Source of the DNA: Psammoneis japonica
Lineage: Eukaryota
Length of the DNA: 64,000 nt
Reading direction: 5' to 3'
Assembly (NCBI GenBank): GCA_008632985.1
Contig: QPGO01000086.1
Location: forward strand, 1-64,000
Shown: positions 14,189-53,434 of the stretch, one piece after another
Position numbering within the stretch: the first letter of the stretch is position 1
Layout: the number at the start of each line of letters is the position of its first letter
Position numbers and translations under genes: made by a program
The notes under the pieces: generated by a model
Database searches by the model: none
What the model saw: only the letters and a program-made list of their open reading frames with translations
Told to the model about the DNA's origin: nothing

Positions 14189-16972
14189 GGTTGCTGGCAT
14201 TTGGAAGCAGTTGACATGTGAACCCGAGACAAGCAATGCCAGAAAAAAGCAGACTTTGGACAGTCTGACAGCATCCATTTGAGGCAAAAAGTTGGCCAAT
14301 GCACACGCTAATTCCAGTGCAGAATTTCGAAAAATAATTGCCACAGAAATGACATTTGAAACCAGTTGATGCGCAAGCCCAAGACAGGCCATGCCACCGG
14401 AGAAGAAGACTTTGGACAATGTGACAGCAACTTGTGATGCGTCATTGTGCGTTTTGCTTTTTTTAGTCCATCACAGGCAAAAAGTCGACCAATGCACATG
14501 CCAACTCCAATGCAGAAATTCAAAAACACTTTTGCCACCCCATGGAAATTGGTGCATCAAGACAACTTCTTTGAAGAAGAAACCCAATGCCAAGAGCATC
14601 TCCTGCAACCTCTCCGCTTGACAGCCATGAGGTTTGTCAAATCCCCACCAGATGTGAACAACACCTCAAAACTGTCAAAGAAGACAACAAGAAACAAGCT
14701 CCCATTGAAAAAGGTGTCCGCAGTTTGGAACCTCAGGGCTGAATGAGTTCAAGCATGTGAGAAATGACTTGGCAATGTCAGAAGGCAAGTCTGGCAGAAA
14801 CAATTTTTTGTCCTCCAGCAAAGATCCTGCCAAGTGCACAGATTCACTCATGGGTGAGACATCAAGAAGTCCTTCAAATGCTTCCAGATCCACATCTTGC
14901 AGCAATTCTGTCCATTGGACAAAGTCCTTTGGCAGACCTTGTCTGACATTCAATTTCGGATCATCAGGTTCATCCCAATGAGACCAGAGTCAAGGCCATC
15001 TTGGTCAAAGTCCTGAAATGGTGCCACCAGTGGATGTGGCTCCAGGGCAGATGTGAGCGTTCAGCAACACCAAGATTCCACACTGAGCCCATGCTCTTAA
15101 AAAGGAAGCAATGCAGTCACACAGAATTGCTGGCCAATGCACCCCATCAAAGAAACGCACTCATGACAAAGAAACAACTGGCACAGATGCTGCACTGTGT
15201 CAAAGCTGGCTGCAGTTGTTCTTGTTGTTGTGGTGACCAGTGCAGCATTGAGTGTGAGAGATGCACAAGCCCTGCATCATGCAGTCCTTGCATTTGAAGC
15301 ACAGGCAACCCAGAGCTCAGCAGCCAACACCTTTGAATGCTTGTGATGCCAAAGTGACCAGCTGAAGAGTGGCAAGTTGCTCAGCTTCTTAAGCTCCACC
15401 TTGTTTGTGCAAAGCTGAGCAGAAGTCATCCAAAATGTCCAAAAACCATGGCCCTCATTTTGGCAGACTTGTTCTCATTGAAGTCATCATCAGAGTCAAG
15501 TGCACCGCACCCTTCAACAGAGAAAAAATGGAGAGCAACAGGGCAGGCAGACAAACATGTGGACTGCCAAGCAAAGTGAGCTTTGCACACCGCCTTTTCT
15601 TGTGTGGCAACAGACAGCTCTTCCTCCAAGCACTGATGCTGCAGATGAGGAGGGTGACCCACATGGACACTGGAGCCCATGGCAGGGTTGCCCAGGGGAG
15701 TTTTGCTGGCAAACTTGTGCCAGTTGTGTGCCAAGTTGTCTGCAAGGCAGAAGTCAGCAGCAGAGCAATGCAAAACATGCTCAACATTGGCAGCCTTGTC
15801 AACAACATTCAGGCATGACAAGTGAAGTGACAACTTTGTCAGAGGTGAAGAGTTGGCAACACTTGGGTGGGCCAAAACATCAACATGACATGCCGTCGGG
15901 GTCTTGTTGTGGAATGGAAAATCAAGAGCCCAGCCCTTTGCAGCAATGCAAGGGCCAGAGCTGGCTCCTTTTGAGGAAGAAGAAGTTTCAGCCATCTTGA
16001 TGCTTCCATCTCAGGTGTCTGGCACTGGTCTGCAACAAAGAGGGGGCTTGCAGGCCTGTTCCAGCCCCAGGTGGTGAGAAATCCATCATGCAAGAGGCCA
16101 AGCACTGAGCTCCTTCAAATTGGATCCTTTTGAAAATCAAAGGGTGAGAGCACACAAAAAAAACAAGTTTTGTGTGCACTCACCCTTCGGTTTGGGAAAA
16201 ACCCAATTTTGAAGGAGTTTGTTGCACTGAATGCAAAAACGGGCCAGCGATGGGAGCAAAGCCTGTGCACATTGTCCGGAGCTGAACAGGCAGCCTGCAA
16301 GCCTCTGATGCATGTCAGTGTGTTGCCCTCACAACAGCAATGCCAAACCTCAATGGACTGATGTTGCATCCTTGCCCACCTCTTCTCATGTGAAGAAAAT
16401 GGTTGTTTGCATCAGCAACATGGGCAACAGGGCAGCCCATGCTTTTCTCGTGTTGCTTTCAGCACCCCCGCAGCTCTTGTCCTCACGTGCTTTGTCACAT
16501 CAAAGACAAAGCAGCATGAGCGGGGACAAAAAGCAATTGAAAATGATGTGCCACATGACATCCACAGGGGTGACGATGGACACTTGTGGACACGTCAATT
16601 TTTCAGGGAAAAAAAACAAGTGCACCACGCCAAATGTGCGCAATTGCCAAACAAAGTTGTTCTGGCAACAGGCCAAACTTTGTCCATTCCCAGGATGTCA
16701 CAGAATGCCCAGACAGCAGCTGTGGCCATGCACTGTGTTCAGCTTGTTGGCTGCACACAAGCAAAGCAACTTTGGTGAACACTGGTGGCAATTTCAACAA
16801 CCTGGCAAAATGACAGGAGGGTGGCTGACAAGTGACAAATGTCCAAAGGATGCCCAAGAACAGTGCAGATGTCCTTCTCTCTTTGAGATTGAAAAATGCG
16901 GCAACAATTGTGATGCACAGCCCCGTTCAGGGAAGTGTTCCGTGCTCTCTCTAGAGTGGGGGGAAGAATGTC

Positions 16973-22900: not shown

Positions 22901-25900
22901 GACAGCAGCCAACTCTGGGTGATCTCAGCATGGTGTGCTTGTTTGGGCTGTGCTGCACTCACCCCACAGTGCTCTGTGTTGTGGTGGCTTGTTGTGCAAG
23001 CCGTGTGGCTGAAGAGCCAGCAGCCAGCCAGGGCCCATCTTGCAAAGGCCACAAATGTTGACCCTGTGCAAAGCTGTGTGAGGGGCAGGCACAGGGATTT
23101 GCAATGATGGCTTCACAGCCATTGGCCCCAAGTTGGCATTTGATTGGGATCCAGTGCTGAGGGGCTGTGAAGTGTGGGGTTGGGAGCCCAGCCAGCTCGC
23201 ACTCTCTTTGTTGTCACAAAGTGCTGCCACAGCTGTCTTTGCATTGCAACCAGCCAGGTGCGGTTGACCCCAAGTTGGCACTTGATTTGGAGTGACTGCC
23301 AAGGAGCTGTGAAGTGTGGGGTTGGGCAGTCCAGCCAGCTCACACTCTTTGCTGACAGCAGAAAGCACTGTCGCAGCTGTCCTTGCGCACACATGGCCAG
23401 AGCAGCCTTGGCACATCCTGCTGACAAAACTGACAAAGACAGCGACTCTTGTGGTTGAGCCACTCAGCACGCAGGAGATCTGGGCACACTCCTGGGAAGT
23501 CAAACAGGAAGGAGGGCTGAGCATTGCCGCCAGTGCCAGGCACAAATGTCAGCTTGTCTTGAGAGAGATTCGAGCCCACACAGCCCCGCGTTGGGCATCT
23601 TTGCTGGCAAAATGGAAAGCATTCTTGAGCACATTCTGGCATGTGGGCAGCACTGTCACCAAGAGGGCTGCTCTGCAGAGGAAGAGGGAAATGGGCAACA
23701 ACATTTTGCAAGAACTGTTTTGTGTCAATGGTCGGGTGGGATGTGGCAGCATTGTCTGGACTTTGATGGAGCATTTGGCGGACAAAGCTTGAGCACAGAG
23801 AGTTGTCCACTCAAGCTCCACAAGTGGCACTTTCCAAAGGTGACACCACACATGGGCCATGTGTTCATGCATCAACATGCCTCAAGCTGCAAGTCACACA
23901 AAAAAACCACCACCAACCTTTCAGCCAACCACCATCATGGACAGAACAGGTCAAGAGGTTCAAAACAAGAGCGATTCATTGACTCTCTTCTGGTTCCATG
24001 CATTCAAGAGCTTCTTGTCCTTCTCAAATGTTTGTTGTGCATTGTTGTCTCTTTTAATTCAAGTGCAAAGAGGAGTCACTTTTCTTGTTTCCATCTCTTG
24101 AGATGTTGTTGGTTGTTGAGTGATGCAACTTTTGTTGTCACATTTTTGGAAATGTTGGCAAACCCGATCACTGCTTGATTGTCAACCCATTTGCTGTTTT
24201 AAGTCTCCATGGCATAAAATGCCATAATTCCAGAGCCCTCAATTGTTTCATCAAACGCAGTGCTTTGAAACACGTCCAACATCAACTCGACTCAGTTGAA
24301 ATCCCAGTTTGTGGGCGATGAAAAATCACGAATGTCAAACAAATGGCTACTTTCGACATCAAGATCCCCGAGTTCAATCCAAATGTGACGGTACGCCTCA
24401 CAGCTTATGGCCATGACACATACAAGCATGCCTCATTGTCATCGCGTCGAGCACTCGTATCGAAAATGCCGATAGATCAAAGTTCAGGAAAAGGATGGAA
24501 TACAAATTCATTTGTGAATTCATTAGTGGCATTGGCGTAATGATATTTACGGCAGAAGCAATCTAAAATCCTTATTCATCATTGACATTTCTGTATTGCT
24601 CAGATTTTGAAATCTGACCACTACCGTTAAGCATTTAGCTGTCTTTGTATGGAAGTGGAAATGACACTTAACGATTTACACTAACCATTTAGCTTTCTTT
24701 GTGTCGAAGTGGAAATGACACTTAACGATTTACACTAACCATTTAGCTTACTTTGGCTCGAAGTCAGACAAAGAGATTGGGCTATGGGCTTGTCGTTAAC
24801 CAGCCACGAGCATGAAATCTTTACCATTTTCGGCAATTTTTTCATGTTCGTGGCCGGTTAAAGGAAAAGAGAAAAAAAGAGGGGAATCAACCGTTGAACA
24901 CACACACACAATTGACCATGCAACCATGGCCAGAGTTGCACTGGCTTCTTTTGATCCAGGGTGGTTGCTGCAGGTGCAAAGAGTGGGGCACATTGCAGTT
25001 GCAGGAGGGTGACAATGTGGCACTGAGTGTGTGCCACCAGGCTGAGCAGCCCAGCTTGGGTGTCAGCCAAGCCCTGCCAGGCCAGCTGCCCTGGCTCCAG
25101 CTGCTCTTCCCAGTGTGCGTGAGTTGTTGAAGGAGCACCACATTGACTCAAAGGCTGTGTTTTAAGTGGGGCAGAGAGAAAAAACTGTTGTCTTGGCTGG
25201 TGCTTGCTTCAGACCCTGCATCATGAGCGCAAGCTCCTCTTGAGAAATGAGCGAGAATGGCCATTTTTGGCGCCTCTCTTTGGTTGCCCACTTGGCATTG
25301 CCAACAAATCTTGAACCAAACTTCACTCACAGTTTCTTCACTCTTCAACCACAAAACCAGGTTCAACTTTTTGTTGGCTTCTTTGTGGCTGGGGTCACTG
25401 TTGCAGGCACAAATGGTGGGCACATGCCATGTGGCTGCTTGGCAACAAGAATGTGATGCCAAGCATGTGCTGCACACCAAGGAGCCAAGCAGCCCAGCCC
25501 AGCTTTGAATGGAGCCCCAGGACAGCAGCCAACTCTGGGTGATCTCAGCATGGTGTGCTTGTTTGGGCTGTGCTGCACTCACCCCACAGTGCTCTGTGTT
25601 GTGGTGGCTTGTTGTGCAAGCCGTGTGGCTGAAGAGCCAGCAGCCAGCCAGGGCCCATCTTGCAAAGGCCACAAATGTTGACCCTGTGCAAAGCTGTGTG
25701 AGGGGGCAGGCACAGGGATTTGCAATGATGGCTTCACAGCCATTGGCCCCAAGTTGGCATTTGATTGGGATCCAGTGCTGAGGGGCTGTGAAGTGTGGGG
25801 TTGGGAGCCCAGCCAGCTCGCACTCTCTTTGTTGTCACAAAGTGCTGCCACAGCTGTCTTTGCATTGCAACCAGCCAGGTGCGGTTGACCCCAAGTTGGC

Positions 25901-28900
25901 ACTTGATTTGGAGTGACTGCCAAGGAGCTGTGAAGTGTGGGGTTGGGCAGTCCAGCCAGCTCACACTCTTTGCTGACAGCAGAAAGCACTGTCGCAGCTG
26001 TCCTTGCGCACACATGGCCAGAGCAGCCTTGGCACATCCTGCTGACAAAACTGACAAAGACAGCGACTCTTGTGGTTGAGCCACTCAGCACGCAGGAGAT
26101 CTGGGCACACTCCTGGGAAGTCAAACAGGAAGGAGGGCTGAGCATTGCCGCCAGTGCCAGGCACAAATGTCAGCTTGTCTTGAGAGAGATTCGAGCCCAC
26201 ACAGCCCCGCGTTGGGCATCTTTGCTGGCAAAATGGAAAGCATTCTTGAGCACATTCTGGCATGTGGGCAGCACTGTCACCAAGAGGGCTGCTCTGCAGA
26301 GGAAGAGGGAAATGGGCAACAACATTTTGCAAGAACTGTTTTGTGTCAATGGTCGGGTGGGATGTGGCAGCATTGTCTGGACTTTGATGGAGCATTTGGC
26401 GGACAAAGCTTGAGCACAGAGAGTTGTCCACTCAAGCTCCACAAGTGGCACTTTCCAAAGGTGACACCACACATGGGCCATGTGTTCATGCATCAACATG
26501 CCTCAAGCTGCAAGTCACACAAAAAAACCACCACCAACCTTTCAGCCAACCACCATCATGGACAGAACAGGTCAAGAGGTTCAAAACAAGAGCGATTCAT
26601 TGACTCTCTTCTGGTTCCATGCATTCAAGAGCTTCTTGTCCTTCTCAAATGTTTGTTGTGCATTGTTGTCTCTTTTAATTCAAGTGCAAAGAGGAGTCAC
26701 TTTTCTTGTTTCCATCTCTTGAGATGTTGTTGGTTGTTGAGTGATGCAACTTTTGTTGTCACATTTTTGGAAATGTTGGCAAACCCGATCACTGCTTGAT
26801 TGTCAACCCATTTGCTGTTTTAAGTCTCCATGGCATAAAATGCCATAATTCCAGAGCCCTCAATTGTTTCATCAAACGCAGTGCTTTGAAACACGTCCAA
26901 CATCAACTCGACTCAGTTGAAATCCCAGTTTGTGGGCGATGAAAAATCACGAATGTCAAACAAATGGCTACTTTCGACATCAAGATCCCCGAGTTCAATC
27001 CAAATGTGACGGTACGCCTCACAGCTTATGGCCATGACACATACAAGCATGCCTCATTGTCATCGCGTCGAGCACTCGTATCGAAAATGCCGATAGATCA
27101 AAGTTCAGGAAAAGGATGGAATACAAATTCATTTGTGAATTCATTAGTGGCATTGGCGTAATGATATTTACGGCAGAAGCAATCTAAAATCCTTATTCAT
27201 CATTGACATTTCTGTATTGCTCAGATTTTGAAATCTGACCACTACCGTTAAGCATTTAGCTGTCTTTGTATGGAAGTGGAAATGACACTTAACGATTTAC
27301 ACTAACCATTTAGCTTTCTTTGTGTCGAAGTGGAAATGACACTTAACGATTTACACTAACCATTTAGCTTACTTTGGCTCGAAGTCAGACAAAGAGATTG
27401 GGCTATGGGCTTGTCGTTAACCAGCCACGAGCATGAAATCTTTACCATTTTCGGCAATTTTTTCATGTTCGTGGCCGGTTAAAGGAAAAGAGAAAAAAAG
27501 AGGGGAATCAACCGTTGAACACACACACACAATTGACCATGCAACCATGGCCAGAGTTGCACTGGCTTCTTTTGATCCAGGGTGGTTGCTGCAGGTGCAA
27601 AGAGTGGGGCACATTGCAGTTGCAGGAGGGTGACAATGTGGCACTGAGTGTGTGCCACCAGGCTGAGCAGCCCAGCTTGGGTGTCAGCCAAGCCCTGCCA
27701 GGCCAGCTGCCCTGGCTCCAGCTGCTCTTCCCAGTGTGCGTGAGTTGTTGAAGGAGCACCACATTGACTCAAAGGCTGTGTTTTAAGTGGGGCAGAGAGA
27801 AAAAACTGTTGTCTTGGCTGGTGCTTGCTTCAGACCCTGCATCATGAGCGCAAGCTCCTCTTGAGAAATGAGCGAGAATGGCCATTTTTGGCGCCTCTCT
27901 TTGGTTGCCCACTTGGCATTGCCAACAAATCTTGAACCAAACTTCACTCACAGTTTCTTCACTCTTCAACCACAAAACCAGGTTCAACTTTTTGTTGGCT
28001 TCTTTGTGGCTGGGGTCACTGTTGCAGGCACAAATGGTGGGCACATGCCATGTGGCTGCTTGGCAACAAGAATGTGATGCCAAGCATGTGCTGCACACCA
28101 AGGAGCCAAGCAGCCCAGCCCAGCTTTGAATGGAGCCCCAGGACAGCAGCCAACTCTGGGTGATCTCAGCATGGTGTGCTTGTTTGGGCTGTGCTGCACT
28201 CACCCCACAGTGCTCTGTGTTGTGGTGGCTTGTTGTGCAAGCCGTGTGGCTGAAGAGCCAGCAGCCAGCCAGGGCCCATCTTGCAAAGGCCACAAATGTT
28301 GACCCTGTGCAAAGCTGTGTGAGGGGGCAGGCACAGGGATTTGCAATGATGGCTTCACAGCCATTGGCCCCAAGTTGGCATTTGATTGGGATCCAGTGCT
28401 GAGGGGCTGTGAAGTGTGGGGTTGGGAGCCCAGCCAGCTCGCACTCTCTTTGTTGTCACAAAGTGCTGCCACAGCTGTCTTTGCATTGCAACCAGCCAGG
28501 TGCGGTTGACCCCAAGTTGGCACTTGATTTGGAGTGACTGCCAAGGAGCTGTGAAGTGTGGGGTTGGGCAGTCCAGCCAGCTCACACTCTTTGCTGACAG
28601 CAGAAAGCACTGTCGCAGCTGTCCTTGCGCACACATGGCCAGAGCAGCCTTGGCACATCCTGCTGACAAAACTGACAAAGACAGCGACTCTTGTGGTTGA
28701 GCCACTCAGCACGCAGGAGATCTGGGCACACTCCTGGGAAGTCAAACAGGAAGGAGGGCTGAGCATTGCCGCCAGTGCCAGGCACAAATGTCAGCTTGTC
28801 TTGAGAGAGATTCGAGCCCACACAGCCCCGCGTTGGGCATCTTTGCTGGCAAAATGGAAAGCATTCTTGAGCACATTCTGGCATGTGGGCAGCACTGTCA

Positions 28901-30067
28901 CCAAGAGGGCTGCTCTGCAGAGGAAGAGGGAAATGGGCAACAACATTTTGCAAGAACTGTTTTGTGTCAATGGTCGGGTGGGATGTGGCAGCATTGTCTG
29001 GACTTTGATGGAGCATTTGGCGGACAAAGCTTGAGCACAGAGAGTTGTCCACTCAAGCTCCACAAGTGGCACTTTCCAAAGGTGACACCACACATGGGCC
29101 ATGTGTTCATGCATCAACATGCCTCAAGCTGCAAGTCACACAAAAAAACCACCACCAACCTTTCAGCCAACCACCATCATGGACAGAACAGGTCAAGAGG
29201 TTCAAAACAAGAGCGATTCATTGACTCTCTTCTGGTTCCATGCATTCAAGAGCTTCTTGTCCTTCTCAAATGTTTGTTGTGCATTGTTGTCTCTTTTAAT
29301 TCAAGTGCAAAGAGGAGTCACTTTTCTTGTTTCCATCTCTTGAGATGTTGTTGGTTGTTGAGTGATGCAACTTTTGTTGTCACATTTTTGGAAATGTTGG
29401 CAAACCCGATCACTGCTTGATTGTCAACCCATTTGCTGTTTTAAGTCTCCATGGCATAAAATGCCATAATTCCAGAGCCCTCAATTGTTTCATCAAACGC
29501 AGTGCTTTGAAACACGTCCAACATCAACTCGACTCAGTTGAAATCCCAGTTTGTGGGCGATGAAAAATCACGAATGTCAAACAAATGGCTACTTTCGACA
29601 TCAAGATCCCCGAGTTCAATCCAAATGTGACGGTACGCCTCACAGCTTATGGCCATGACACATACAAGCATGCCTCATTGTCATCGCGTCGAGCACTCGT
29701 ATCGAAAATGCCGATAGATCAAAGTTCAGGAAAAGGATGGAATACAAATTCATTTGTGAATTCATTAGTGGCATTGGCGTAATGATATTTACGGCAGAAG
29801 CAATCTAAAATCCTTATTCATCATTGACATTTCTGTATTGCTCAGATTTTGAAATCTGACCACTACCGTTAAGCATTTAGCTGTCTTTGTATGGAAGTGG
29901 AAATGACACTTAACGATTTACACTAACCATTTAGCTTTCTTTGTGTCGAAGTGGAAATGACACTTAACGATTTACACTAACCATTTAGCTTACTTTGGCT
30001 CGAAGTCAGACAAAGAGATTGGGCTATGGGCTTGTCGTTAACCAGCCACGAGCATGAAATCTTTACC
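16973..30067. repeat. Head-to-tail array of five ~2.62-kb TIR-bounded units: 16973-19586, 19593-22206, 22212-24825, 24832-27446, 27453-30067
   Basis: Near-identical units. Left end GGCAATTTTTTCATGTTCGTGGCCGGTTAA is an imperfect inverted repeat of right end TTAACCAGCCACGAGCATGAAATCTTTACC. Spacers are GGAGTC, ATTTC, ATTTTC, ATTTTC. Each unit has an internal 44-bp direct repeat (54-bp period) near its right end. Confidence 0.9.
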
Positions 30068-30740
30068 ATTTTCTCGAAGACGAGACGACGATACTGTACC
30101 TACCATACCAAGGTACAGTACCTCATACCGTACTCATCCCTCATCAAACATACATGAATAAGCATAATCATCATATTATATAACAAAATAATACTAGTAT
30201 CGTATTTTGTGAAGCTTCAAAATTCCAAAAATGAAAATAAAATACTTACTAAATACAGCTAAAAGAGTAGCAAATTACCACTCTTAAAGGGCCCTACTGT
30301 AGTACAGTACTTATTTTTGGTACAGTATCAACTTTCTTGTGTTACTTGGTGAGCGGTCACCCTAATTATTTTTTTCAATGCCAGTTTGAACTTCTGTCTT
30401 GCCCTCAGATTTTTTTGGCGACAGAAAAGGTGACACGACGTTCGCCGTTTCTCTCTCTTCCTCTCATATTTCTCTAATCTTCGATGCGGTAGCCAAGGCA
30501 ACTACCATCATCCTTGTGCCGATTGACACTCTCCCTTTTGCTGCATACTATACAAACGACACGCTCACCTGATCCCCAGACTATCCGTAAGAACAAAATG
30601 GCATTCTTTCTCTTTGCGAATGCGTTCAACAAATGAATGAAGGATGTCTCATATTGTTCATTTTCTGGTTCCTGCGTCTCCCCCAACACAGCTAGGCCTA
30701 AAGGATCGAACAAGAAAATACACAAGACACGCTCATTATC

Positions 30741-31766
30741 ATGCCTGAAAAGGTTGTTGGAATCGTGGATCGTGGATCGGCCTTGTCCGAGAAGAACACG
30801 GTCGTGTGTCGATTTCGCGACTTCAAGTCGTTGGCGAGTACCCGAAAGGAATCTGTCCTATCCCCTTGTTTTGAATGCCATGGACAAATCTGGAGAATGC
30901 TTCTTTTCCCAGGTGGGAGCGAGCATTCTAACAAGAATGAAGTTCACGTTTCCGTGTATCTACGCTGGATAAACGTGGATGAAAGTGACGATAGCACCTT
31001 GGATACCGTTTTTGCATGTCGACTAGGTTCCAAGACCGTGAGGAGCGTACGGCAGCAGTTTCAGCCAGGCAAAAGCAAGGGATTTGGAAACTTCCTCCCC
31101 CGCGCTGACGTTCTCGACAGATACCTTACAAAGAATGGCGACCTTGAAATAAAAGTCGACATTCAGCTTTTTCAAGATATTGAAAAGTATTCGGTTCCAA
31201 GACAAGTGACATACCCCGAGAATACACTCCACCTTGACATGCTTGAAATGCTCAGAGATGAAAAGCACGCAGACGTCACTTTTGTAGTCAAAGACAAGAC
31301 ATTTCATGCCCATCAAGCTGTGCTATGGGTACGCGCTCCTTTCCTTGCGACCCTTGCTGAAGAGCTTGATCAAGTCATCCCGATCCCTGGTGTGGATCCG
31401 GCTTTGTTCGAGACTCTTCTCCACTTTATCTATTCCAACACTCTACCACCTGCTGTAGATATCAAGGCCGACGCCATTGGTCTACTGGAGCTAGCAAACA
31501 AGTTTGATTGTCCGTCCCTAAAGGCGGTGGCGGAAGCGGAAATCTTTGCAAACGGAATCACGGTCGCGACAGCTGCGGAACTCTTACTCTACGCGGATAA
31601 AATGGATTGCGTCGAGCTAAAAGAAGCAACCAAGCAGTTCTTTCTGGAAAACCGGAAGGCTGTTATGAAGTCCAAAGGTTTTGCCACACTTAAAGAGTCT
31701 CCCAAGCTCTCAGGAGAACTGTTGACGGCTCTCTCTGACCTCCTCCCTCCTCAACTCGGTTACTGA
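30741..31766 (+). CDS. MATH-BTB/POZ (SPOP-like) Cullin3 adaptor
   Basis: MATH-like SPCFECHGQIWRMLLFPGG...VSVYL, BTB ADVTFVV..FHAHQAVL..RAP...LLHFIY, and a BACK-like LLELANKF...LK..AE region. Intact ORF in a TA-normal island. Confidence 0.9.
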   Translation: MPEKVVGIVDRGSALSEKNTVVCRFRDFKSLASTRKESVLSPCFECHGQIWRMLLFPGGSEHSNKNEVHVSVYLRWINVDESDDSTLDTVFACRLGSKTVRSVRQQFQPGKSKGFGNFLPRADVLDRYLTKNGDLEIKVDIQLFQDIEKYSVPRQVTYPENTLHLDMLEMLRDEKHADVTFVVKDKTFHAHQAVLWVRAPFLATLAEELDQVIPIPGVDPALFETLLHFIYSNTLPPAVDIKADAIGLLELANKFDCPSLKAVAEAEIFANGITVATAAELLLYADKMDCVELKEATKQFFLENRKAVMKSKGFATLKESPKLSGELLTALSDLLPPQLGY

Positions 31767-32053
31767 TTCTTCGTCCAAGGAAATGCATCTTTTTCGATAT
31801 TTTTGCATGTACATACATGTGACTCTGTCTGTTTTGTTGTGGCAGGCCACTAGAGGCTAGCATTATGACAGTAAACATTTTAATTTTAATAATTTTGCAC
31901 TTTTCATAACATACAGTATATTTTACACTACAACCAAACGAATCGACGACGGAACAGGCAAGGCGTCTTCAAGAAGGAAGATGGGTACAGTAGTTTCTTT
32001 GGATGGAGAGCGCGCAGTGCCCCGTCAAAAAGTAGAAGCGTTTTGGTCAACAA

Positions 32054-38606: not shown

Positions 38607-38660
38607 GTCTTTCCTGCGTTGGCAGGACCGAGAGCTGCAAGTCAAAATGTCAAAGTCATT

Positions 38661-38868
38661 TTGTCAATGTCATTTCGGACATTTCCACATGTCGCTCACG
38701 TCATCGAGATTCAAATCTCTTCTCTTCTCACAAATTTGGTCGTTGAGACCTCTCCTCAGTTTGCAATCATAATTTCTCCACAGAGAACTTTGACAACGAC
38801 TTCTGCTGCTCCATTGCAACCTTGAGCTCTTGCTCTTTCTAACACAAGCTACTTTGTCGCATCTTCAG
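38661..38868 (+). repeat. 5' LTR (shared portion; may extend ~50 bp further left)
   Basis: Matches 46403-46612. Ends ...CATCTTCA and is followed by PBS-like TGGTCACGAG. Confidence 0.85.
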
Positions 38869-39374
38869 TGGTCACGAGTCCCAATTTCGCATGGCGTTTG
38901 TTCCGCCGCCGGGAAAGCGCTGTCGATTGGGTCATCAAAGCTTCCATCTGCCACCAACGTCGATTCGTTCGTTTCCACCAAAACGGTCACGTTGTTTGAC
39001 GTCTGAACGACACCTCCAGTCAATGTCAGACACACCCTGCGTTGCCACTAGCCGCCATTGTTCGATTGACAAGATGGCAGCCCATTTTGCTTCGCGGAAT
39101 CGATCTACGATCTCCAACGAGTTCCGAACTTGAAACCCCAACGTCCGTGTGTTTCAAACCAAACCCGGATCGAGTTCCTGCGACTCTCCAGTCCTTTGTC
39201 AATCAAGAACAGCTCCTCAAGTCACGTCACGGGTTGCTCATGTCGTGCCATTGATTGTTGCAATCGTTTGGCGCCGTTCTTCAAGCTCTGCGACTCGAAG
39301 TTCGTTCCATTGATCCATTGTCGAGTTGACTGCGTACATTTGGCACCACAGCTGGACAAAAGTTGTCTCTGCCA

Positions 39375-41687
39375 TGACGAACAATCCTCCTCTGCCCAAG
39401 ACTCCTGCCAGTCAGCCTCCGCCGCCTCCCACGGCACAACAAAACCAGTCGACAGGTGCTGCTGCACAACAGAACCAGTCGACGGGTGCCGCCGCTCAAC
39501 AGAACCAGTCCACCGGTGCCACCGCTCAACAGAACCAGTCTGCTGGTGCCACTGCTCAACAGTCGTCACGTTCCAACGTTCAGCACCCTCGTCCACCTCC
39601 GGTCCATGGTGGAATCCATCCGGAATGTGGTCGCTGCATGGGTGGATCACCGCTGGATGATGACTGCCATCTCAAGCTCAAGCGCACCTGTTGCTCTGCC
39701 AACCAGTCTCGGGACAAGAAGATTCTTCCTCACACAGAGCGCAATCTCCGAGATGCCCGAGATGGAGCCGACGTCGTCAAGTTCGACGGGAACCTGGAGA
39801 TTCCTGATGGCAAGACGAATGAGCTCGACAAGGAACACTTTGTTCAAGCAGTCCGCACGTTAGTGAATGAGCATGGATTGGAAAATTTTTTCGTCATGAA
39901 GTTGGACAAGAAGGTCGTTGACCTCTTCACTCACCTCCACAGCTTCGCCGTTGACGAGGTCATTGCAGAGCATGACGAATGCGCCAACAAGGCAACAGAC
40001 GATTCGGCACACGACGAACATGAGCACGACGATGTCAATCTTTCACATCTTGTCGTCGAGTCTCGCATCACTCACCAACTCTGCGAGAAGATTGAAACTC
40101 AGTTCGGTCATCGCGACCTCTTCCGTTGCCACCCTGGGCAAATCATTTTTGTGATGGCACTTGAGACTTGCAATGCCTCCACCGTGCATGATGTCGCTCA
40201 AGCTGCTGAAGACTTCGAGGATTTGACGCTTGACTCCTGTGCTGGCGAGGATGTTGCCGAGTTTGCCACCGAGGCTCTCCGTCTCACCAAGATCCTGCAA
40301 ACAGGATGCATGCTCCCCGTCTCTCTTGGGTCCGATCTCCTTCGGAAGTGCTCCAAGACCTCTGGCGAAGCGCTCAATCGAGCAATCTTTGCCCAGTTAG
40401 ACAAGGTGACGGCCATGGAACGCAAGCATCGTTTGATGGACCCAGCGCCACTTGCCAAGGACAAGGACTGCGGAACTCTTGGTCTGACTGCGTGCATCAC
40501 CTCTTCCTTCAGACGAGGCATCGTAACTTCGTCACCGATGAGGGCTGGCCCGGTCTCTCCACTGAACTCCCTCAGGGCAACCACACCTGGCGCAAGGGAG
40601 CTTGCAACGCTTGTGGTGCTCCAGACCACTGGGCCAATGACAAAAAGTGTCCCAAGCATGCGGAACGTCAGCACCTGAAGAAGCTTGCCCGCCAACAACG
40701 CAAGGGCCAACCGCCAGCAGGGACTCCACCCCCTCCCGGCACCATCACTCCAGCGAATGTGCCTGCGGACAAACAAGCGAAGTTCAAGGAGCTGTTGGCA
40801 AACGAGCCCCATCGCTGCACTCGTCCGGCTGATCTCAACCAGCCAGTCGTGAACAAGTGTGGTTCGACTGCTCACTTTTGCACCAAGTGCACGTGCCACC
40901 ACACTGGCATCAAGGGCCTCTGTGCTGGTCACAAGGATGGTGCCCATGCCAACAAGCCACCCAAGAAGGAACAGCCGGATGCCAACCTTGCTTCTGTGCT
41001 GATCCCGATTCCGGCGTGCCGGCTGGGCCACCCACTCAGACCACCGCCGATCCTGCATCTTCCAAGCCCGATCCATCGTCTGACAATGATGCTCCCCCCA
41101 TTTTGGAGGAGGAACCAGTCTGGACCAGGTTCTGTTGCTGTCCTGTCGAGGACGCATCCGGCAATGCTGCTCCCGTTGTGCGAGTCTCCGTCCTTCCCAG
41201 CCCCACCGTTGAGAGGGAGCAGCGCGCAATTTTGGTTGAGACGGTTGACCCGGAAGACGCTGACGATTTCAGCGATTGCTGCGACACTCACGACAATTTG
41301 GATTGGGATGATTCGGTCATCCTCTTTCCTGCTTCGATGTTCCCACCGGAGCCTTCTATCTTGGACAATCCGCCGCCTCCTGTTGAGTCTCCTGAGCTTG
41401 ACGACGAGTTCTACGACACGATCACTGAGCCTGCTCCGAATGTCCTTGACGTGGAACCTCAGCCCACTTCTTGCTGGCTCTGGTCCCTCCTCAAGATCCC
41501 AGTCTTTTGGTTCTCTGCTCTTCTTTGGGAAGGCATCCTGTGGCTGGTGGGTGCTGGTGGTGACCCGCCGCCGCCCTCGCGTTGCTGTCGCCATCTCAAG
41601 CGCAAGCCCACTCTTTTCAGTTGTCCGTGTCGTTGGGGCGTGATCTCCTGTGCAATTGCGCTTTGGCTCTCCATCTGTCTTGGCTGA
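39375..41687 (+). pseudogene. Copia gag-like ORF (frameshifted) with a 30-bp tandem repeat encoding QQNQSTGAAA
   Basis: ORFs 39326-40678, 40306-41643 and 40857-41687. CNACGAPDHWANDKKC knuckle-like motif. Four repeat units at ~39436-39560. Confidence 0.7.
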
Positions 41688-41711
41688 GCCCCGCCCCATC
41701 CTGGTGTTCCT

Positions 41712-44700
41712 TTGCAGTGCCTCTGCTCTCAGACCCACGCAGTTCTTCAAGCTCTTGACGAACGTGTCGTCTTGACCCCTGGCACCCTGCTGCAGCATCA
41801 CCATCTGAAGATCAAGCAGTTCCAGCATGAGGTCTTGGCACCAGAGGGAGCAACGCATGACATGACGACCTTGCCTTTCAAGCTTCACGAGTTGATCGAG
41901 GCCTGTGAGCTCAATGACTGCTTTGACACCTGTGAGGACCTGCCTGTCTTTCAAGAGTCCTTCTTTGATGCTGCTGCCTTTCGCGAGTTGGACTTCTCCA
42001 GTCCTGACATCTTTGGGATCTCTGAGTTGTGTCGAGCCCACCATGTGGTCGACTGCACCGAGTTCCAACCTTCTGTCGCGGAACTGGTTGCTCAAGCTGC
42101 TGGTGCGTCCCCTGCTTCCATTGGACAACCTGCTGCAGCTGCTGTCCAGGCTCTCACAGGAGCCACCCAAATGTCTCACCTGGCTGGGGACCCTGCCGTT
42201 CTCATGTCCGTCGGGCAGTCGTCACTGGAGGTCGTCTTCGATGCTGGCACCTTGCTTGCTGTCTCTCCAGATGAGGAGGACTTTGATGGCGAGATTGAAC
42301 TGCTGTCTGAGCCTCTCAAGCTTGGTGGGATGGCCAACGGCCTTCCCGTCGAGGGCGTTGGTGCTGTCTCTTGGTGCTTCCAGGCTGCCGATGGCAGTGA
42401 CGTCAATGTCCAGACTCGCTGCCATTGTGTCCCTCGTTCCAAGGTGCGCCTCCTGTCCCCTCAACGTCTCTTTCATCCTGCGGGCATTCGAGGCCATTTT
42501 TGGGGCGACAGTGAGATCTTCAAGATTTGTTTTTACGGCACACCCGAGATCCAAGTTCCGTGCGATGAGCGCTCAAACTTGCCGGTTGGTTGTGCATCTT
42601 GCGGCGCTGTGTTCACTCCTCAGGTCAATTTGAGCGCTGTTGCTGACACTGACAATCTCAATCTGTCCTCTGGGCAGAAGCTGCTCATGGATGTGCATGC
42701 TCGGTTTGGGCATCTCAACTTTCCATGCATCCAAGCTCTTCTCTGCCGGCCTCCTTTCACCGCTCTCAAGTTCGCATCTGCTTCCAAGTGTGACATCCCC
42801 AAATGCAATGCCTGCAAGCATGCCAAGGCTCACCGCCGTCCTGCTTGGGCCCAACGGAAGACTGCTGTCCCTGAACGCGATGGTGCACTCAAGGCTGGTC
42901 ATCTCCATCCAGGTCAGTCCGTGAGCATTGATCACTTCGAGTCGCGTCTGAAGGGTCGCACCTGCGATTCCCGTGGCAAACCCTCCTCCCAGCAGCATGT
43001 TGGCGGCTGTGTTTTCGTCAATCATGCCTCTGGGTTCATGCACACTGAGCATCAAGTTGGTTTCTCTGCAGTTGAGACGACACGGGCAAAACAAGGTTGT
43101 GAGCAGATGGCTCTGGGTCATGGTGTCGTCGTGCAGGAGCACCTTGCCGACAATGGTGCTTTCAAGGCCAACAAGTTTGTCACCCACATCCGCGAATCTC
43201 AGCAATGCATCCACTGTTGTGGAACGAACGCCCATCACCAGAACGGCATTGCGGAGCGGTCCATTCATTCCACATCCAACATGGTGCGAGCCATGATCCT
43301 CCGCGCGTCCATCCATTGGCGCGGTGGCATTGACAGCTCCTTGTGGCCCATGGCGGTCAACTGTGCCGACGCGTTCCAGCCCTAGGTGGGAGCTCGTAGT
43401 GCTGACGTGTGACAACAATAATTTTTATCATCCGTCGTATGTTTCGTACGTAGATTTCTACGTGTGATGATTAAAAAAAATTGTCCAGACTCGCTGTTTT
43501 GCGAAGCCCCAGACGTTTTATATAACAAATTTATAGAAACAATAATGCGCCAGTTACATTCTTCAATGTCTGAAGAATGTAACTGGCTAAGTAAAAAATG
43601 ATGTACTTCAATCATGTGCGAGTTTGTGCGTTCGCAAAATTGCCTCATTTTCTGTTGGCGATCATTGACATTTTAATTACCGTATAATTTTACTACGGAG
43701 CTCGCAGGTAGAAGTCTGCGGGCCCAATGTCACACGGATTCCCACCTGCGTCTGGAACGCGTCTGCCGCCCACATCTGCAACAACACTCCGGGATCAAAT
43801 GGACTTTGTCCTGCCGACATTTTCACCGGATCCACCGTCCCACGCCACCGTTTGCTCGATTTACATGCTTGGGGTTGTCCTGTCTGCGTCTTGGATCCCA
43901 AGTTGCAGCAAGGACAGAAATTGCCGTGTTGGCAACCACGATCACGGTGTGGTGTTTTTCTTGGCCTCAGCTTGGTTCGCACTGGCAAGGTTCCACTGGT
44001 CCTGAACTTGAATGCCAGGTCCATTGCTCCTCAGCATCATGTGGCATTCGACGATCTCTTTGCCACGGTCGCATTGATCGAGAGGGAGAGCAAGCCACCT
44101 GATCACTGGGAAGAGCTCTGTTTGGAGAGTGTCACCCAGATGCCACTGGATTCGAGCAACAAACAATTGTTCCTCCAAGACAATTGGCTCACTCCTGCAG
44201 AACTCCAGCAGAAACAGTGACATGAAGAACGTGAGCATCTCGTCAGGAACACATGTCAACAACAGCCTGCCGCTACGAAGTCTTCGAAGCCCATCGCTCC
44301 AGTCATCGAACCGCTGCCATCCACACGTCCCAACACATCCATGCCATCAAATTCAGATGACTTGCCATCGGCGCCACCCCAGGAACCGCCATTGCAGCCA
44401 CCGCAAAACCCCAGTCCATCAATGAGCGATTCTGAAGTTGGTCATGCACCGCCTCCCGCACATCCGCCACCTCAATCTGGCCCGGAGTCATCGGACATCC
44501 CAGTCCCGGCTCCTGATGTTCCAGTCCCATCCACGACTGAGCAGAACGTGCGTCGCTCACAAAGATCAAACAAAGGCAAGCGAGCTACAACTCGTTTTGC
44601 TGACGAAGTCCATTTGGCCTCAGTGGAGCCATTGGATGCTGGAGGACACCATTCCCAGCTCGCCTGTCTTGCTGAGATCCAGACCTGCTGTGACAGTGGA

Positions 44701-46393
44701 CAGTTGGATGTTCAAGACCCTCGTGTCTGCGCTGCAAAGGCCAAGAAGAATGACGATGCGCCAAACATGCGGGAAGCTCTCACAGGCAAATTCGCCGAGC
44801 AATGCGTCGAGGCCATGAAGACTGAAGTGGCCACGCTTGTTCATCGTAAAACTTGGAAATTTGTCAAGCGCGATTCATCTGTGAACACACTGAAATCAAC
44901 ATGGGCATTTAAGTTGAAATGCTTGCCCGACGGCACTCCGCTGAAATTCAAGGCTCAATTTTGTTGTCGTGGCGATTTGCAGCAAGAGGGAGTCGACCAC
45001 TTCAAGACTTGCGCTCCAGTGGTCCAGTGGTCGACTGTTCGTTTGCTGTTGAGTGCTGCATTGCAAGAAGGGTGGACAACTCGTCAAGTTGACTGCACAA
45101 ATGCGTTTGCACAAGCTGACATCACTGAAGACGTTTGTGTCGAACCTCCCAAGTGCTTTGGTCATCCTTCAGGTACGAACGTGGTTCTCAAGCCACTCAA
45201 GATGCTCCATGGGTTGAAACAAGCCCCGAAATGCTTCTGCAAAAAGCTTTGCGAAGGATTGCTTGAACGAGGGTGGATTCAGTCAGCTGTAGATCCATGT
45301 CCATTCTTCAAGGATGGTGTGATTTGTGTCGCATGCGTCGATGACACCATCCTCGCTGGTGCCAACGGAGACCTTCTGGAACGCGAGATTGCCGCTCCAG
45401 GAATTCAAAAGGAAGAACAACGTCACATTTTTGAGCTTCGTAATGAAGGAGAAGTTGGCGACTTCCTGGGTGTCAAGATTCGCAAGACCGGACCCAAGGA
45501 GTTTCTCCCAACTCAACCAGGTCTGACTGATGAGGTCCTCAAAGCTGCTGGCATGGAAGATTGTCGTCCTTCTCCCATGCCTTGCACTGCTTCTCCATGC
45601 CATGCTGATTCAGAGGGAGCCGATTTCGCTGAACCATGGGATTGCCGGTCCATTGTGGGGTGCTCATGTGCTTGTCGGCAAACTCCCGTCCCGATGTCAC
45701 GTGCGCCACCCATCAAGCCGCTCGCTTCTCCTGCGCTCCCAAACACTCTCATGCTGTTGCAGTGAAGCGCACTCTTCATCATCTTCAAGGTGCCAAGGAC
45801 AAGGGCCTCCATCTACGCCCTGACGACAACCAACGAGTTGATTGTTTCGTGGGTGCCGATCTTGCTGGACTCTGCGGTCATGAAAACTCCCAAGACCCCG
45901 TGAGTGTCAAGTCTCACACAGGACACGTCATTTTGCATTGCGACTGTCCCATTCTGTGGGTCTCCAAGCTGCAGATGCAGATTGCCCTCTCCACTGTGGA
46001 GGCAGAACATCTGGCACTGTCGGCTGGCATGCGCGACCTGATTCCCATCCGAGAAATTTTGAAAGAAATTCAGCATCACGCACTCGGGCACAAGAATGCT
46101 TCTACTCCCACTGCTGCCAAATCTGAAGCCTTTTCTGATGTGAAAGATGGCGCGATTCCTTCCTCCATCGTCTGCGAGGACAACCAAGCGTGCCTCAAGT
46201 TCGCGAAAATGGCGAAGATGTCTCCTCGCACCAAACACATTGGCATTCCCTGTCATTGGTTCCACACTAAAGTTGAAGCGCTCGAGATCGTCATTGAGCC
46301 TGCAGGAACCGACTCTCAGCTTGCAGATCAGTTTGCAAAGGGGTTGGTCCAAGCTCTGTTTGAATCCGGTCGGAAGAGTCTGTCTGGCTGGCA
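41712..46393 (+). pseudogene. Copia pol (PR-IN-RT-RH), inactivated
   Basis: Domain motifs with Tyr->Cys/His substitutions, a MITE inside IN, a frameshift near 45660, and the likely terminal LxGW* read as TGG CAG. Confidence 0.9.
43368..43763. mobile_element. 396-bp MITE, copy 2 (TA-rich, essentially unmutated), inside the Copia integrase
   Basis: TIRs GACGCGTTCCAGCCCTAGGTGGG and CCCACCTGCGTCTGGAACGCGTC. TSD TGCC at 43364-43367 and 43764-43767. Removing it restores SLWPMAVNCAAHICNNTP. Confidence 0.92.
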
Positions 46394-46402
46394 GCTCTGC
46401 GG

Positions 46403-46612
46403 TTGTCAATGTCATTTCAGACATTTCTGCATGTCACTTACATCATCAAGATTCAAATCTCTTCTCTTCTCACAAATTCGGTCATTGAGACCGACCCTCT
46501 TCAGTTTGCAATCACAATTTCTCCATGGAGAACTTTGACAACGACTTCTGCCACTCTGTTGCAACCTTGAGCTCTTGCTCTTTCTAACACAAGCTGCTTT
46601 GTCGCATCTTTA
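46403..46612 (+). repeat. 3' LTR (5' part and polypurine tract apparently missing)
   Basis: Colinear with 38661-38868 and begins ~10 bp after the end of RNase H. Confidence 0.85.
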
Positions 46613-46679
46613 GTCTGTGCTCTTCTTCACTCCGAACTTCTGGTGGTCTTTCAGCTCACATTGTCCTCCAAAGCCTTTC

Positions 46680-47720
46680 CATTCCAAATGTGAGATCAAT
46701 CATCCGTGGTGTCTCTGGGAACTCGGCTGATGGAAACCTTGCGGCGCTAATGGGTTCGAGTGGTGCAGGCAAAACTAAGGTGGACAGGACTGGGGGCACC
46801 CTCAAGGTGAACGGAATTGAGACTGAATTGACACGGTGCCGCAGCACTTTGTCCCACAGGAGAATGTCATGATTTGTGACCTTGCAGCTGCAGCGAACAT
46901 TCTGCACTCAGCATCAATGCACCTCCCGATCGACGGGTCAAATGAGAAGAAGCTCGCGCTTGTTGTCGACGAGACAATCGACTCCCTCGACATTGATCGT
47001 CTTTGTGATTACGTCGTCCGAGAAGAGAATCGCCGGGGGATCAGTTGTGGGCAGCGCAAGTGTGTCAACAATCTGTCGAGATGGGGATGAAGCCAAGTGT
47101 TCTTTGCCGCGACGAGCCAAATCTGGTGAGCTGGAATCGACTGCATCTCCAGCAGTTCGAGAAACTCAAATGATTTGCAAAATCGGGAAAAAGCGTCACA
47201 TGAGATTTTTCTCCTGTTTGAGATGCTCCCACTCCTTGGCAAGAGCGGCCGCACCTTGTGTTGCGGAAGTGCTCCACACATGAAAGAGTGCTTTGAAAAA
47301 CGAGGATTGCGGTTGCCACTGATGGCCAATCCTGCCGATTGCACATGGACAGAGAGTGGCTGTGTGCTCCTGCGAATCCGGGCTCTGTCTCTCTGGAGGT
47401 GGCTAAACGCACTGCTGAAAGCAAGAGAGAACAGAAGTGTCGGAAAGAGATTTCGGTAGAGTGTGCGTCGGTGTTCAAGCACATTTTGCCGATCTCTGCA
47501 AACACCTCTTTCGAGAGTCTGGCAAGGACAAAAGGGGTCATCAAGCAGCTCCCGGTGTGCTCACTCAGTTTCTTTTGCTTTTCGATAGATTCCCGAGTCT
47601 GCCGTTTTGTGCGATGGCATCCCAAGCACCTTGAGGACACAGATGGCTTCTGGCAGGGACATCTGAAAGAGAACGTGACCCGGTCAGATCGAATCCCATC
47701 CAATTCTGACCTCTGTGCAC
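46680..47720 (+). pseudogene. ABCG (White-type) transporter NBD pseudogene, 3' part
   Basis: IIRGVSG..ALMGSSGAGKT (Walker A), FVPQEN, RGISCGQRK (signature), and EIFLLF..LLGKSG..FEKRG..PLMANPAD. Multiple frameshifts. Confidence 0.85.
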
Positions 47721-48915: not shown

Positions 48916-49965
48916 TCAATTCTCGAAGTCAACCCACCAAATCTCATGCTGAAACGGATCGTCCGAGCCGCCCTGGTCTTCAAAGACAGCCGAGAAATGA
49001 TCGCATTGTCCCGGGTCTTTTGAAGCTTCAACACCGACTTTGTCAATGCAATGTTCACCATTGCCAAAGTTCAAGTCAAAGCCAGTCACAACGCTCCTGC
49101 ACGTCGGCAAACCAGCAAACCTAAAACCACATTGGGACACAGCAACATCACCTCGTTCCGGTCCAAAAGATCCGGAATGAGCAACCTTGTCACTCGGGAC
49201 AAGAGCATGCCGGATGTGCCATTCAAAGGGATCATCCCTGCCATTGTCTTCCAAGCAAACTTGAATCGTCGGCGAGGACTGGTCATCACTGACGCGAACC
49301 CGAATGTGGTCGATGTTGTTGTCGACGTCTGCACCTGCGCACCAAACCTCGAATCCTTGAAGAACACAGTGGCGCCCCGGAGAGTGGAATTTCGATGATG
49401 AGAAGCACCCTTTGTGGGGCCCACCAATGTCCCACGAGCCAATGTCCTGGTGCCTTGTTCCTTCAGGCATTGCCACTGCACGAACGTCGCAGCAGCACGG
49501 ATCGTCACCACTCTTGTCGGCAAAACGAGTCTCAACATGATGAGTGTGAGGCCAAATGCCCAATCCCCTAAAGCTCCTGTCGTTGTGAACGTTGTCAAGA
49601 GTGAAGCAACTGAAACTGGGCTTTCTGGCGAAGCTTCCGCCGATCCAATCGGATTTGCCCTGCCATCCTGTGGCATTTCCTTTCCCCGTCAATGGCTGCG
49701 ACGGATCCTTGCAGTTGAAAGGAGCATGGACACCACAATCCCAGCGGCTGTTTTCGTCGCAGGTGTTTTCACAGCAGTCGCCACCGTCACATCCACACTC
49801 TGGGACATTGCAGTTCTCAAGGTTCGAGTCGCTGCTGTCACACCAACCATCGCCCACATGGCTGGGCGTTTCAGTGTGGCACCTGGGATGTCCAGGAACT
49901 TGTTGCCCACTCGAGAGCTTGAGCACCACCAAGAGTGCGCCAGTGATGACTTGACCAATCTTCAT
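48916..49965 (-). pseudogene. Secreted LNR/Notch-like-domain protein gene with an open frame but no Tyr codons
   Basis: Signal peptide and GDGWCD...NCNVPECGCDGGDCC, where the consensus has N-Y-N and G-Y-DGGDCC. No Tyr in 349 aa. Confidence 0.7.
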
Positions 49966-50159
49966 TGTTCAGCATGCCTTCAAACGATTTGTGGCGATGG
50001 TCGCCAGGTTTTGATTTCATCATTGCAGCATTCTTGCCGCGGTCTCTTGACTCTTGAGTCTTGGGTCGAACGCACTTTCGCAAATCTCTTTTTACGGACA
50101 TTGCGGTGGTGAGCATTGTTCGCGCTTCACTTGTCTTTGGACAAGCTCCATTTGTCCAT

Positions 50160-52260: not shown

Positions 52261-52681
52261 CCCATTCTGGATGAAGTGCCCTCACCCAGACAGCACGCTG
52301 ACCTGCCATGTGCAGAGACTGCTGACACCCGACTGCCAAGACAATGAGAGCACCTTGACACACCAACTCCAGTGCCAGAATGTTTTCAAATTTTGCATGT
52401 GCAGCAATCGAAACATGCACGTGACAACCACCCCTTGCTCGCACAACTGCGTTAACTGCATGACATCTGTTTCCTCCTCAAAAAGCACATGTCTGCCATG
52501 CAAAGTTCTCTGGCATTGGAAAAATTTACAGAGACATTCGTTGGTTGTCTGATCACTTGTCACAACAAATGTTTGCATGTGGAGTGAACCTGCAATCCTC
52601 AAAGCACCACACACCATCAACACCACATGCACATCTCATTTTTTGTGCAGGTCAATCCTGGCAAATGGGTGCAAGACAAAA

Positions 52682-53434
52682 ATGAAGTTTGCCTTGGCCT
52701 CGATCGTGAGTGTTTGGTGCTTTGCATCTGCCAGCGGTGCTGACAGTCCAAAGGACAAAGAGATGCAGGAATCTCTTCTCGACAGGCTCTTGTGTGGCTG
52801 TGGAGTGAACCGTGGAGCCTGCTGCTTCAACCATGGACCCAAAGAGTGCCTCGTCCTCAGTCCTGGAAACTGCCACAGGAGGGGAGGCAACTTTTTAGGA
52901 GCTGGCACAGTGTGTGCACCCTGCAACAGATGCACATGCCCCAAGCATCCTGCCCCCAAGCCAACACCATCACATCCCAAGCATCCCACCCCCAAGCTGA
53001 TGCCATGCCCAGCCCCAAGCCCACACCACACCCAACCCACATGCCTTGCAAGGACTGCTGTCCTGCCCCCAAGCCGGTGCCACACCCAACCCCCAAGCCA
53101 GACTGCTGTCCTGCCCCAAAGCCGGTTGAAGTGTGAGAACAATTGTGCTGACATCAAGAAGAAACTCTGTGAGCACCATGGAGGTGACTTTGCTGGCAAG
53201 GGCATTCTTTGCAGCAAGAACACTTGCCCAGCCACTTGCGGTGCCTGCTGCAAGAAGGATGGCTCTTGCATTGTGGTCAGGAAGAAGTTTTGCAAAAACA
53301 TCAAGGGACACTTTCTTGGATTTGGTGCCATCTGCAAGAAGCACATCTGCCCCAAGCACCCTTCACATGCAGCCAAAAGTGCCAGCAAAAACTGTGGTTC
53401 CAACTCTGAAACAGTGGCAAAAGCAGACATTTGA
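52682..53434 (+). pseudogene. Secreted Cys-rich (GACC-repeat) and Pro-rich protein gene, hypermutated
   Basis: Signal peptide MKFALASIV, GACC...C...GGxFLGxGTxC repeats, and (H/C)PTPKP-type repeats probably derived from YPTPKP. No Tyr. Confidence 0.6.

Follow-up and report, generated by a model that had tools for sequence, protein, structure and literature searches.

In the diatom Psammoneis japonica, the two long terminal repeats (LTRs) of a decayed Ty1/Copia retrotransposon appear to have diverged after insertion through two distinct processes, namely the fast conversion of TA steps to TG or CA and a slower decay of CG to the same products. The element occupies positions 38640-46614 of the window, i.e. 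the whole stretch of 64,000 nucleotides that was analyzed (contig QPGO01000086.1 of assembly GCA_008632985.1, positions 1 to 64,000). In the proposed course of events, a single Copia insertion with identical LTRs would have entered a silenced, repeat-rich domain of the genome, after which both processes would have worked on the chromosomal DNA of each LTR separately. The first would be a TpA-specific A:T>G:C mutator that alters the adenine of TA steps on either strand, yielding TG or CA. The altered step then ceases to be a target, so that two copies would often reach opposite states. This mutator would favor an A that precedes a pyrimidine and act on one site at a time over many generations, with early saturation. 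The second process would be the slower CG>TG/CA decay. The direction of change, the involvement of both strands, the timing after insertion, the context bias, the relative rates and the confinement to a domain are borne out by the comparisons given below, and the overall two-process explanation of the LTR pair is held to be highly probable.

The LTR pair was compared over 38661-38868 and 46403-46613, where 207 aligned columns contain 20 substitutions (all transitions) and one 3-bp insertion. Eighteen of these substitutions interconvert TA, CA, TG and CG (p = 2.5e-5, given that 44% of the LTR bases lie in these dinucleotides). This agrees with an earlier note on this DNA, which had stated that nearly all differences are of this kind. 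All six of its quoted examples are present, among them CATAAT/CACAAT (38770/46515), GCTACT/GCTGCT (38851/46596) and CTCAC/CTTAC (38697/46439). The set can be subdivided into four reciprocal sites with CA in one LTR and TG in the other (eight changes), four changes of TA versus CA/TG, six of CG versus CA/TG, and two others that adjoin the 3-bp insertion. The reciprocal sites, also pointed out earlier, were located at 38686-38687, 38781-38782, 38807-38808 and 38812-38813. Across four LTR pairs of the same family, 64 of the 68 transitions fall in these four dinucleotides.

Comparison with other copies points firmly to TA as the starting state. For the pol region, 17 conserved Tyr columns were chosen for their conservation among 119 outside homologues, in which they hold 1694 Tyr, 10 Cys and 40 His. 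At the same columns, 33 genomic pol copies show 236 Cys, 163 His and only 88 Tyr, with no CGY codon (the rest being 58 Phe or Trp and one Ser). The window copy has retained none of its 15 scorable conserved Tyr (11 Cys, 4 His). The observed/expected ratio (o/e) of TA within the element is 0.05-0.09, and other copies still carry TA at single sites of the window element (e.g. 44459, 44611 and 45194). The same direction is seen in sequences that are unrelated to Copia. A miniature inverted-repeat transposable element (MITE) inside the element was compared among the 30 copies closest to it, out of at least 40. Of 69 minority alleles, 39 are TA>TG (25) or TA>CA (14), two are the reverse and one is CG>CA; a TA-poor flank is present on at least one side of 29 of the 30 copies. 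Outside the element, the first of five 2.62-kb tandem units (tract 18977-19558) serves as an internal control. Against the other four units it has 15 A>G and 8 T>C changes, which fall at 23 TA sites, plus one change at a CG, so that 23 of 24 changes are TA>TG/CA, and the A>G and T>C changes are interleaved along the tract.

The timing and strandedness were addressed in a younger sister family, for which 18 loci yielded 15 LTR pairs (three loci gave no pair). These pairs differ by TA/TG at 54 sites, TA/CA at 38, reciprocally at 22, by CG-type changes at 16 and otherwise at 14. The two LTRs of one sister element are about as distant from each other as from those of other elements (median 5.1% within pairs versus 5.6% between). 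In the window family, 20, 12 and 20 differences were counted within pairs, versus 16.5 on average for LTRs of different elements within the subfamily (18 between-element pairs, averaged by hand). Read in sense orientation, the TA sites of the sister copies have become TG 915 times and CA 778 times. Taken together, these comparisons place the changes after insertion, on chromosomal DNA and independently on both strands, as the earlier note had proposed.

The relative rates of the two processes were estimated from 17 sister copies (one divergent copy of the 18 was left out, and the sites were picked by variation among copies). Of 123 TA-type sites 63-90% have been lost, of 211 CG sites 7-28%, while other change amounts to 0.5-2.9%. 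All such counts are lower bounds, with the least-changed sister copy having already lost 63% of its TA sites; none of the 16 LTR matches and 60 pol matches belonged to an unmutated member of the window family. The TA erasure thus appears to be fast and to saturate early. It is also dependent on the following base: the edited fraction is 0.48-0.52 when the A is followed by C or T and 0.20-0.22 when it is followed by A or G. This bias explains the survival of CTAA (0.90 kept) and TTAG (0.81 kept, three sites each) as well as the TA steps left in the window LTR. The CG decay appears to be slower, yet to supply a large share of the differences in older copies. At the CG sites of the sister copies, 230 have become TG and 258 CA, whereas 3260 are kept, and this class is also observed in conserved Arg codons. 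Between the window element and C97, another full copy of the family, 216 CG-type, 23 single TA-type and 110 reciprocal differences were counted. The CG>TG/CA class would fit the deamination of 5-methylcytosine. Genes with PF00145 are present in the genome, and DNMT5 is reported to methylate CG in diatom Copia (PMC9998398, which does not mention deamination in its accessible part). Such deamination of methylated transposons would account for the CG class in Copia, but it cannot account for the loss of TA, given the very different losses of the two in young copies.

The earlier expectation that LTR-based ages would be inflated could be given a size. Four pairs of the window family carry 69 substitutions in 840 columns (8.2%), of which only five (0.6%) lie outside TA/CA/TG/CG steps. 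In the 15 sister pairs there are 167 in 3524 columns (4.7%), with 14 (0.4%) outside these steps. By our own arithmetic, based on small counts and with a wide error, the raw LTR divergence inflates the age about 12-fold, or about 8-fold after scaling the other transitions for the 44% of bases excluded. RIP (repeat-induced point mutation) has been described to bias LTR ages likewise in fungi (PMC4522978, accessible part).

The process is confined to a domain. From 12500 to 63400 the window is TA-poor (TA o/e 0.13, CG 0.44) with spared islands, whereas the TA o/e is 0.58 in the genic positions 1-12000, 0.68 in the island at 30000-31900 that holds a MATH-BTB gene, and 0.82 in the young MITE. The edges of the domain span a few hundred bases. 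The five tandem units (16971-30073) are 98.9-99.6% alike, and only one of them was struck, the one farthest from the MATH-BTB gene; units 2-5 share their CA/TG states. Targeting that is guided by the domain or its chromatin and proceeds site by site fits these observations better than a burst triggered by pairing. The spared units could alternatively result from the recent amplification of an unhit unit.

Several observations count against the two-process explanation and need to be weighed with it. The target duplication of the window element is identical at only three of five bases (CTGCA at 38635-38639, CTGTG at 46615-46619), and its 5' LTR differs from the C97 5' LTR at seven positions, compared to 20 from its own partner. 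A search for the empty pre-insertion site with the upstream flanking DNA matched only the window itself. At the four reciprocal sites of the pair, neither TA nor CG is present in any of 13 aligned LTRs. There is a slight sense-strand excess among the TA outcomes (nominal p = 0.0009, with sites that are not independent), which goes in the same way as the context bias. No chromatin- or double-stranded RNA-binding domain was found in the scanned deaminase frames, all of which may encode enzymes that act on tRNA or nucleotides. Finally, the reads consulted are contigs only, from one study.

The enzyme is the least certain part of the explanation. Adenine deamination to inosine is proposed because it is the simplest chemistry; whether it is performed on DNA by a host enzyme of the TadA/ADAT fold, recruited to silent chromatin, we judge to be evenly balanced. 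The mutator may act as a transposon defence. Searches for deaminases recovered genes that we take, from motifs and Pfam, to be dCMP-, RibD- and guanine-deaminase-like, TadA-like (L089), ADAT2-like (L092) and two of the ADAT1/ADAR fold, none of which stands out. The lack of a convincing candidate favors another chemistry, e.g. a miscoding modified A or T at heterochromatic TA steps, or an error-prone polymerase or repair pathway. This alternative is a realistic one, though it is ranked somewhat below deamination. In its weak form the signature would be an artefact, and here the reads speak against it. Over 46581-47400, 819 of 820 assembly bases are matched by short-read contigs of run X1, which may derive from the source sample and which do not extend over the 5' LTR; a 3.8-kb contig crosses the TA-poor flank with this single difference. 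Inside the element, all 39 of the read differences listed correspond to letters of other assembled copies, and tandem units 2-5 agree in their CA/TG states. A pure sequencing artefact is therefore disfavored. Among the deaminase frames, that at L091:313-1785 (minus strand, MafB19-deam/dCMP_cyt_deam_1) is continuous with a DIOX_N/2OG-Fe(II) oxygenase.

A comparable process has been described once before, in the rhizarian Bigelowiella natans (bioRxiv 10.64898/2026.01.13.699255; the following refers to the accessible text of this preprint). There, TpA>TpG/CpA hypermutation likewise affects both strands, runs opposite to the usual AT bias and is confined to foreign or mobile DNA, with TA-poor windows enriched in transposon domains. 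The signature, a hypermutation of integrated viral DNA, was measured in mutation-accumulation lines, with a de novo rate raised about 1000-fold and activity in some lines only. An ADAT-type enzyme was proposed and transposons were suggested as targets. The features of that signature are also found here: A>G/T>C at TpA, changes on both strands after integration, and regional confinement with genes spared. In B. natans the rate was measured, whereas in P. japonica the process is known from sequence comparison. The depletion is stronger in the diatom (TA o/e 0.05-0.13, versus 0.45 in the B. natans viral region). The diatom targets are LTR and DNA transposons as well as tandem repeats, a CG decay runs alongside, and there is a bias to TA-pyrimidine; the preprint text does not treat diatoms, LTRs, CpG or retrotransposons. 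The RIP of ascomycetes is likewise a transition hypermutation of both strands that kills repeats and inflates LTR ages (PMC4522978, accessible part). RIP, however, creates TA while the diatom process removes it. RIP hits repeats by pairing; the single struck tandem unit fits targeting by position or chromatin better, though it may also reflect recent amplification. Our literature searches, which left most subscription journals outside their coverage, found no report of a TA-erasing signature in a diatom and nothing on TA avoidance by transposons beyond the B. natans preprint. New here are the host, the target class and the sequence context of the process.

If the two window LTRs stemmed from separate insertions that had recombined, their differences would not trace back to one event. 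The closeness of the 5' LTR to that of C97 and the imperfect duplication would be in line with this, and recombinant Copia without duplication is described in Phaeodactylum (PMC2806351, accessible part). Both mismatches of the duplication, however, amount to exactly one reciprocal CA/TG swap, and the divergence from C97 and C52 is uniform along the element. The 5-bp register recurs in C52 and C86 (four of five bases each) but not in C97, i.e. in three of the four full family copies, and also in the sister family. A single insertion is for this reason likely, although not proven, and separate insertions, the first circumstance under which the earlier note would have failed, are considered unlikely. 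The conclusion moreover does not depend on the window pair, since 11 of the 15 sister pairs have exact duplications (scored by eye) and show the same spectrum.

Editing by an ADAR-type enzyme, of the retrotransposon RNA or during reverse transcription, would have acted before integration. ADAR prefers a 5' T/U neighbor, according to the accessible text of the B. natans preprint (bioRxiv 10.64898/2026.01.13.699255). Two A_deamin genes occur in the genome, and the small sense-strand excess would point the same way. RNA editing would, however, make the LTRs of one element alike, yet they are about as unlike as those of different elements. In addition, T>C nearly equals A>G in the sense orientation, and the MITE, the tandem repeat and the target duplication carry the same changes without having passed through the RNA of this element. 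Neither A>G limited to the transcribed strand nor edits common to both LTRs are seen. The argument of the earlier note against such editing is upheld, and the alternative is largely refuted and very improbable.

Equally improbable is ordinary CpG decay as the only cause, in which the reciprocal sites would once have been CG and TA would be rare for other reasons. The six CG-type changes of the window pair and the predominance of CG-type over single TA-type differences from C97 are in its favor. Among 130 reciprocal pol sites of five copies, moreover, 26 go back to CG, compared to 57 that go back to TA and 47 that are unclear. Where no copy keeps either ancestral state, the assignment is 44 TA, 4 CG and 28 unclear. 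The CG-assigned sites mostly (22 of 26) still show CG in some copy, unlike the four sites of the window pair. In the sister family, TA survives in copies elsewhere at 21 of 22 reciprocal sites (18 with TA alone, 3 with both TA and CG), and Tyr codons cannot become Cys or His through CG decay. An origin of all reciprocal sites from CG, the second circumstance that would have overturned the earlier note, is thus not what was found. CpG decay is refuted as the sole cause and stands as the second, slower process. The claim that one ancestral TA or CG was resolved in opposite directions holds, but it had lumped a fast and a slow process into one. For the four sites of the window pair themselves a TA origin can only be inferred, since none of the 13 LTRs shows TA or CG there.

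The reverse direction, a RIP-like CA>TA and TG>TA change, would interconvert the same dinucleotides and, as RIP does (PMC4522978, accessible part), inflate LTR ages, but its probability is negligible because Tyr is lost here and kept in outside homologues and TA is depleted in the element, while TA is the majority state among MITE and tandem copies.

Copia relatives outside P. japonica show this footprint too, which suggests that the mutator also operates in other hosts, and one lineage among them may represent a response to it. This lineage is poor in Tyr (0.1-1.4%, versus 2.5-3.9% otherwise), with Phe as the commonest replacement. Its members are loci L139, L138, L140, L142, L144 and L153 and proteins P0112, P0121, P0107, P0110, P0118 and P0124-P0128; in the P. 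japonica genome it is absent (best match 41%). The metagenome set comprises 21 loci, of which L158 was too short for scoring. Six of the 20 scorable loci have a TA o/e of 0.01-0.13, and in four loci CG is nearly absent too. In L139 (1364 codons), 18 TA steps stand at the first and second codon positions and seven elsewhere, next to 20 CG. Thirteen of 18 conserved Tyr are retained, versus one to five of the same 18 in dead P. japonica copies, and Arg is encoded by AGR 16 times versus CGN three times. Of 31 differences among near-identical members of Tyr-poor clusters, 10 are Y/C, Y/H or C/H, compared to 10 of 505 differences across ten clusters with normal Tyr content (p = 1e-8, with members that are not independent). 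The pattern of L139 is what selection would be expected to maintain in an element whose host erases TA and CG, as judged from one long locus, its short neighbors and collapsed metagenome assemblies. Such a lineage would have purged its coding sequence of TA and CG, with TA left almost exclusively where an essential Tyr is encoded. Its other Tyr would have been replaced by Phe, and Arg would be encoded through AGR. As a tentative extension, held at somewhat less than even confidence, diatoms and possibly other algae of the stramenopile-alveolate-rhizarian group may possess a defence, guided by chromatin, that edits adenines in DNA and so removes TA (T-A-pyrimidine) from silenced transposons. 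It would be the chemical mirror of RIP, and old and widespread enough for Copia to have counter-adapted elsewhere. If the Tyr-poor lineage is an adaptation, it would be a case of a transposon changing its code and protein composition to evade a host mutator.

So far, measurements of a natural, targeted A:T>G:C mutator acting on chromosomal DNA come from one organism only, and the enzyme is unproven. With a second branch at the supergroup level, an evident transposon target and a motif for the sequence context, the search for the enzyme can be put to the test in diatoms that can be transformed; such an enzyme, if found, would amount to a DNA adenine editor of natural origin. For practical purposes, LTR ages are overstated about 8-12-fold, and the early saturation of TA-derived sites makes them unsuitable for dating. 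Dead DNA that has lost TAA and TAG also contains long open frames, which gene callers will accept.

The bounds of the element were set by the alignment of its two LTRs with 11 further ones, which places the start of the 5' LTR at 38640 instead of 38661, where the earlier note had begun the element. The 5' LTR (38640-38869, plus strand) ends in AGT...AGT and not in TG...CA. The 3' LTR (46403-46614, plus) lacks its initial ~22 nt as well as the purine tract, and carries the 3-bp insertion at 46492-46494. Both flanking duplications are read on the plus strand, the left one in a register common to two other family copies and the sister family. Between the LTRs, all on the plus strand, lie a decayed gag-like frame (39314-40678, labelled by position, no Pfam match) and a decayed region (41688-43385) that presumably is protease/integrase-like, judging from motifs and position. 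The latter has a tblastn match to the outside homologue P0004 and no Pfam match. Further downstream are an SH3_retrovirus-matching frame (43669-44220, E 3.5e-5, below the cut-off), the Ty1/Copia reverse transcriptase (44221-45765, RVT_2, E 1.8e-29) and an RNase H-like frame (45633-46538, labelled by position, no Pfam match). An RVT_2 reverse transcriptase between direct LTRs identifies the element as Ty1/Copia. The MITE (43368-43763, 396 bp), a young non-autonomous DNA transposon, has terminal inverted repeats and a 4-bp duplication (TGCC). It occurs in at least 40 copies at 97-99% identity and may be usable as a clock for recent TA erasure.

The window element resembles the CoDi Ty1/Copia elements of diatoms in its RVT_2 domain, short LTRs and target duplication. 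According to the accessible part of their description (PMC2806351), TG...CA ends are missing in three of 26 CoDi families, and putatively active elements have LTRs that are mostly >95% identical, unlike the window element. Non-canonical ends are found in the window family (AGT...AGT) and in the sister family (L097-L111, AGT...ACT), both with 5-bp duplications. The named homologues of the window Copia are from Fragilaria crotonensis; those of a neighboring intact gene are from Epithemia, Mayamaea, Nitzschia, Fistulifera, Cylindrotheca and Skeletonema, in agreement with a diatom host that is probably pennate.

Some further observations concern other copies and the surroundings. C86 (L019) contains an internal 720-bp inversion at 5447-6168 relative to the window copy. 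C52 (L003/L005) and C482 (L006/L020) have a common 3' flank, either as alleles or through duplication, but 18 differences separate their 3' LTRs; in C482 part of pol is also repeated in tandem. The C5 DNA methylase domain has 27 matches in the genome (L163-L168 and more), of which at least five are near full-length and several are broken, a number that exceeds what is expected of a diatom. Upstream of the MATH-BTB gene, the DNA continues the TA-rich tail of the tandem units. Two frames in the TA-poor domain, at 48916-49968 (minus) and 52553-53434 (plus), are host-like, do not look like transposons and have no Pfam match. They are rich in Cys and His where Tyr might stand, and are possibly captured or pseudogenised genes subjected to the same process. 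At 4288-5850, an intact gene encodes Cys-rich (CxxC) tandem repeats of ~56 amino acids; although internally repetitive, it lies in the TA-normal zone.

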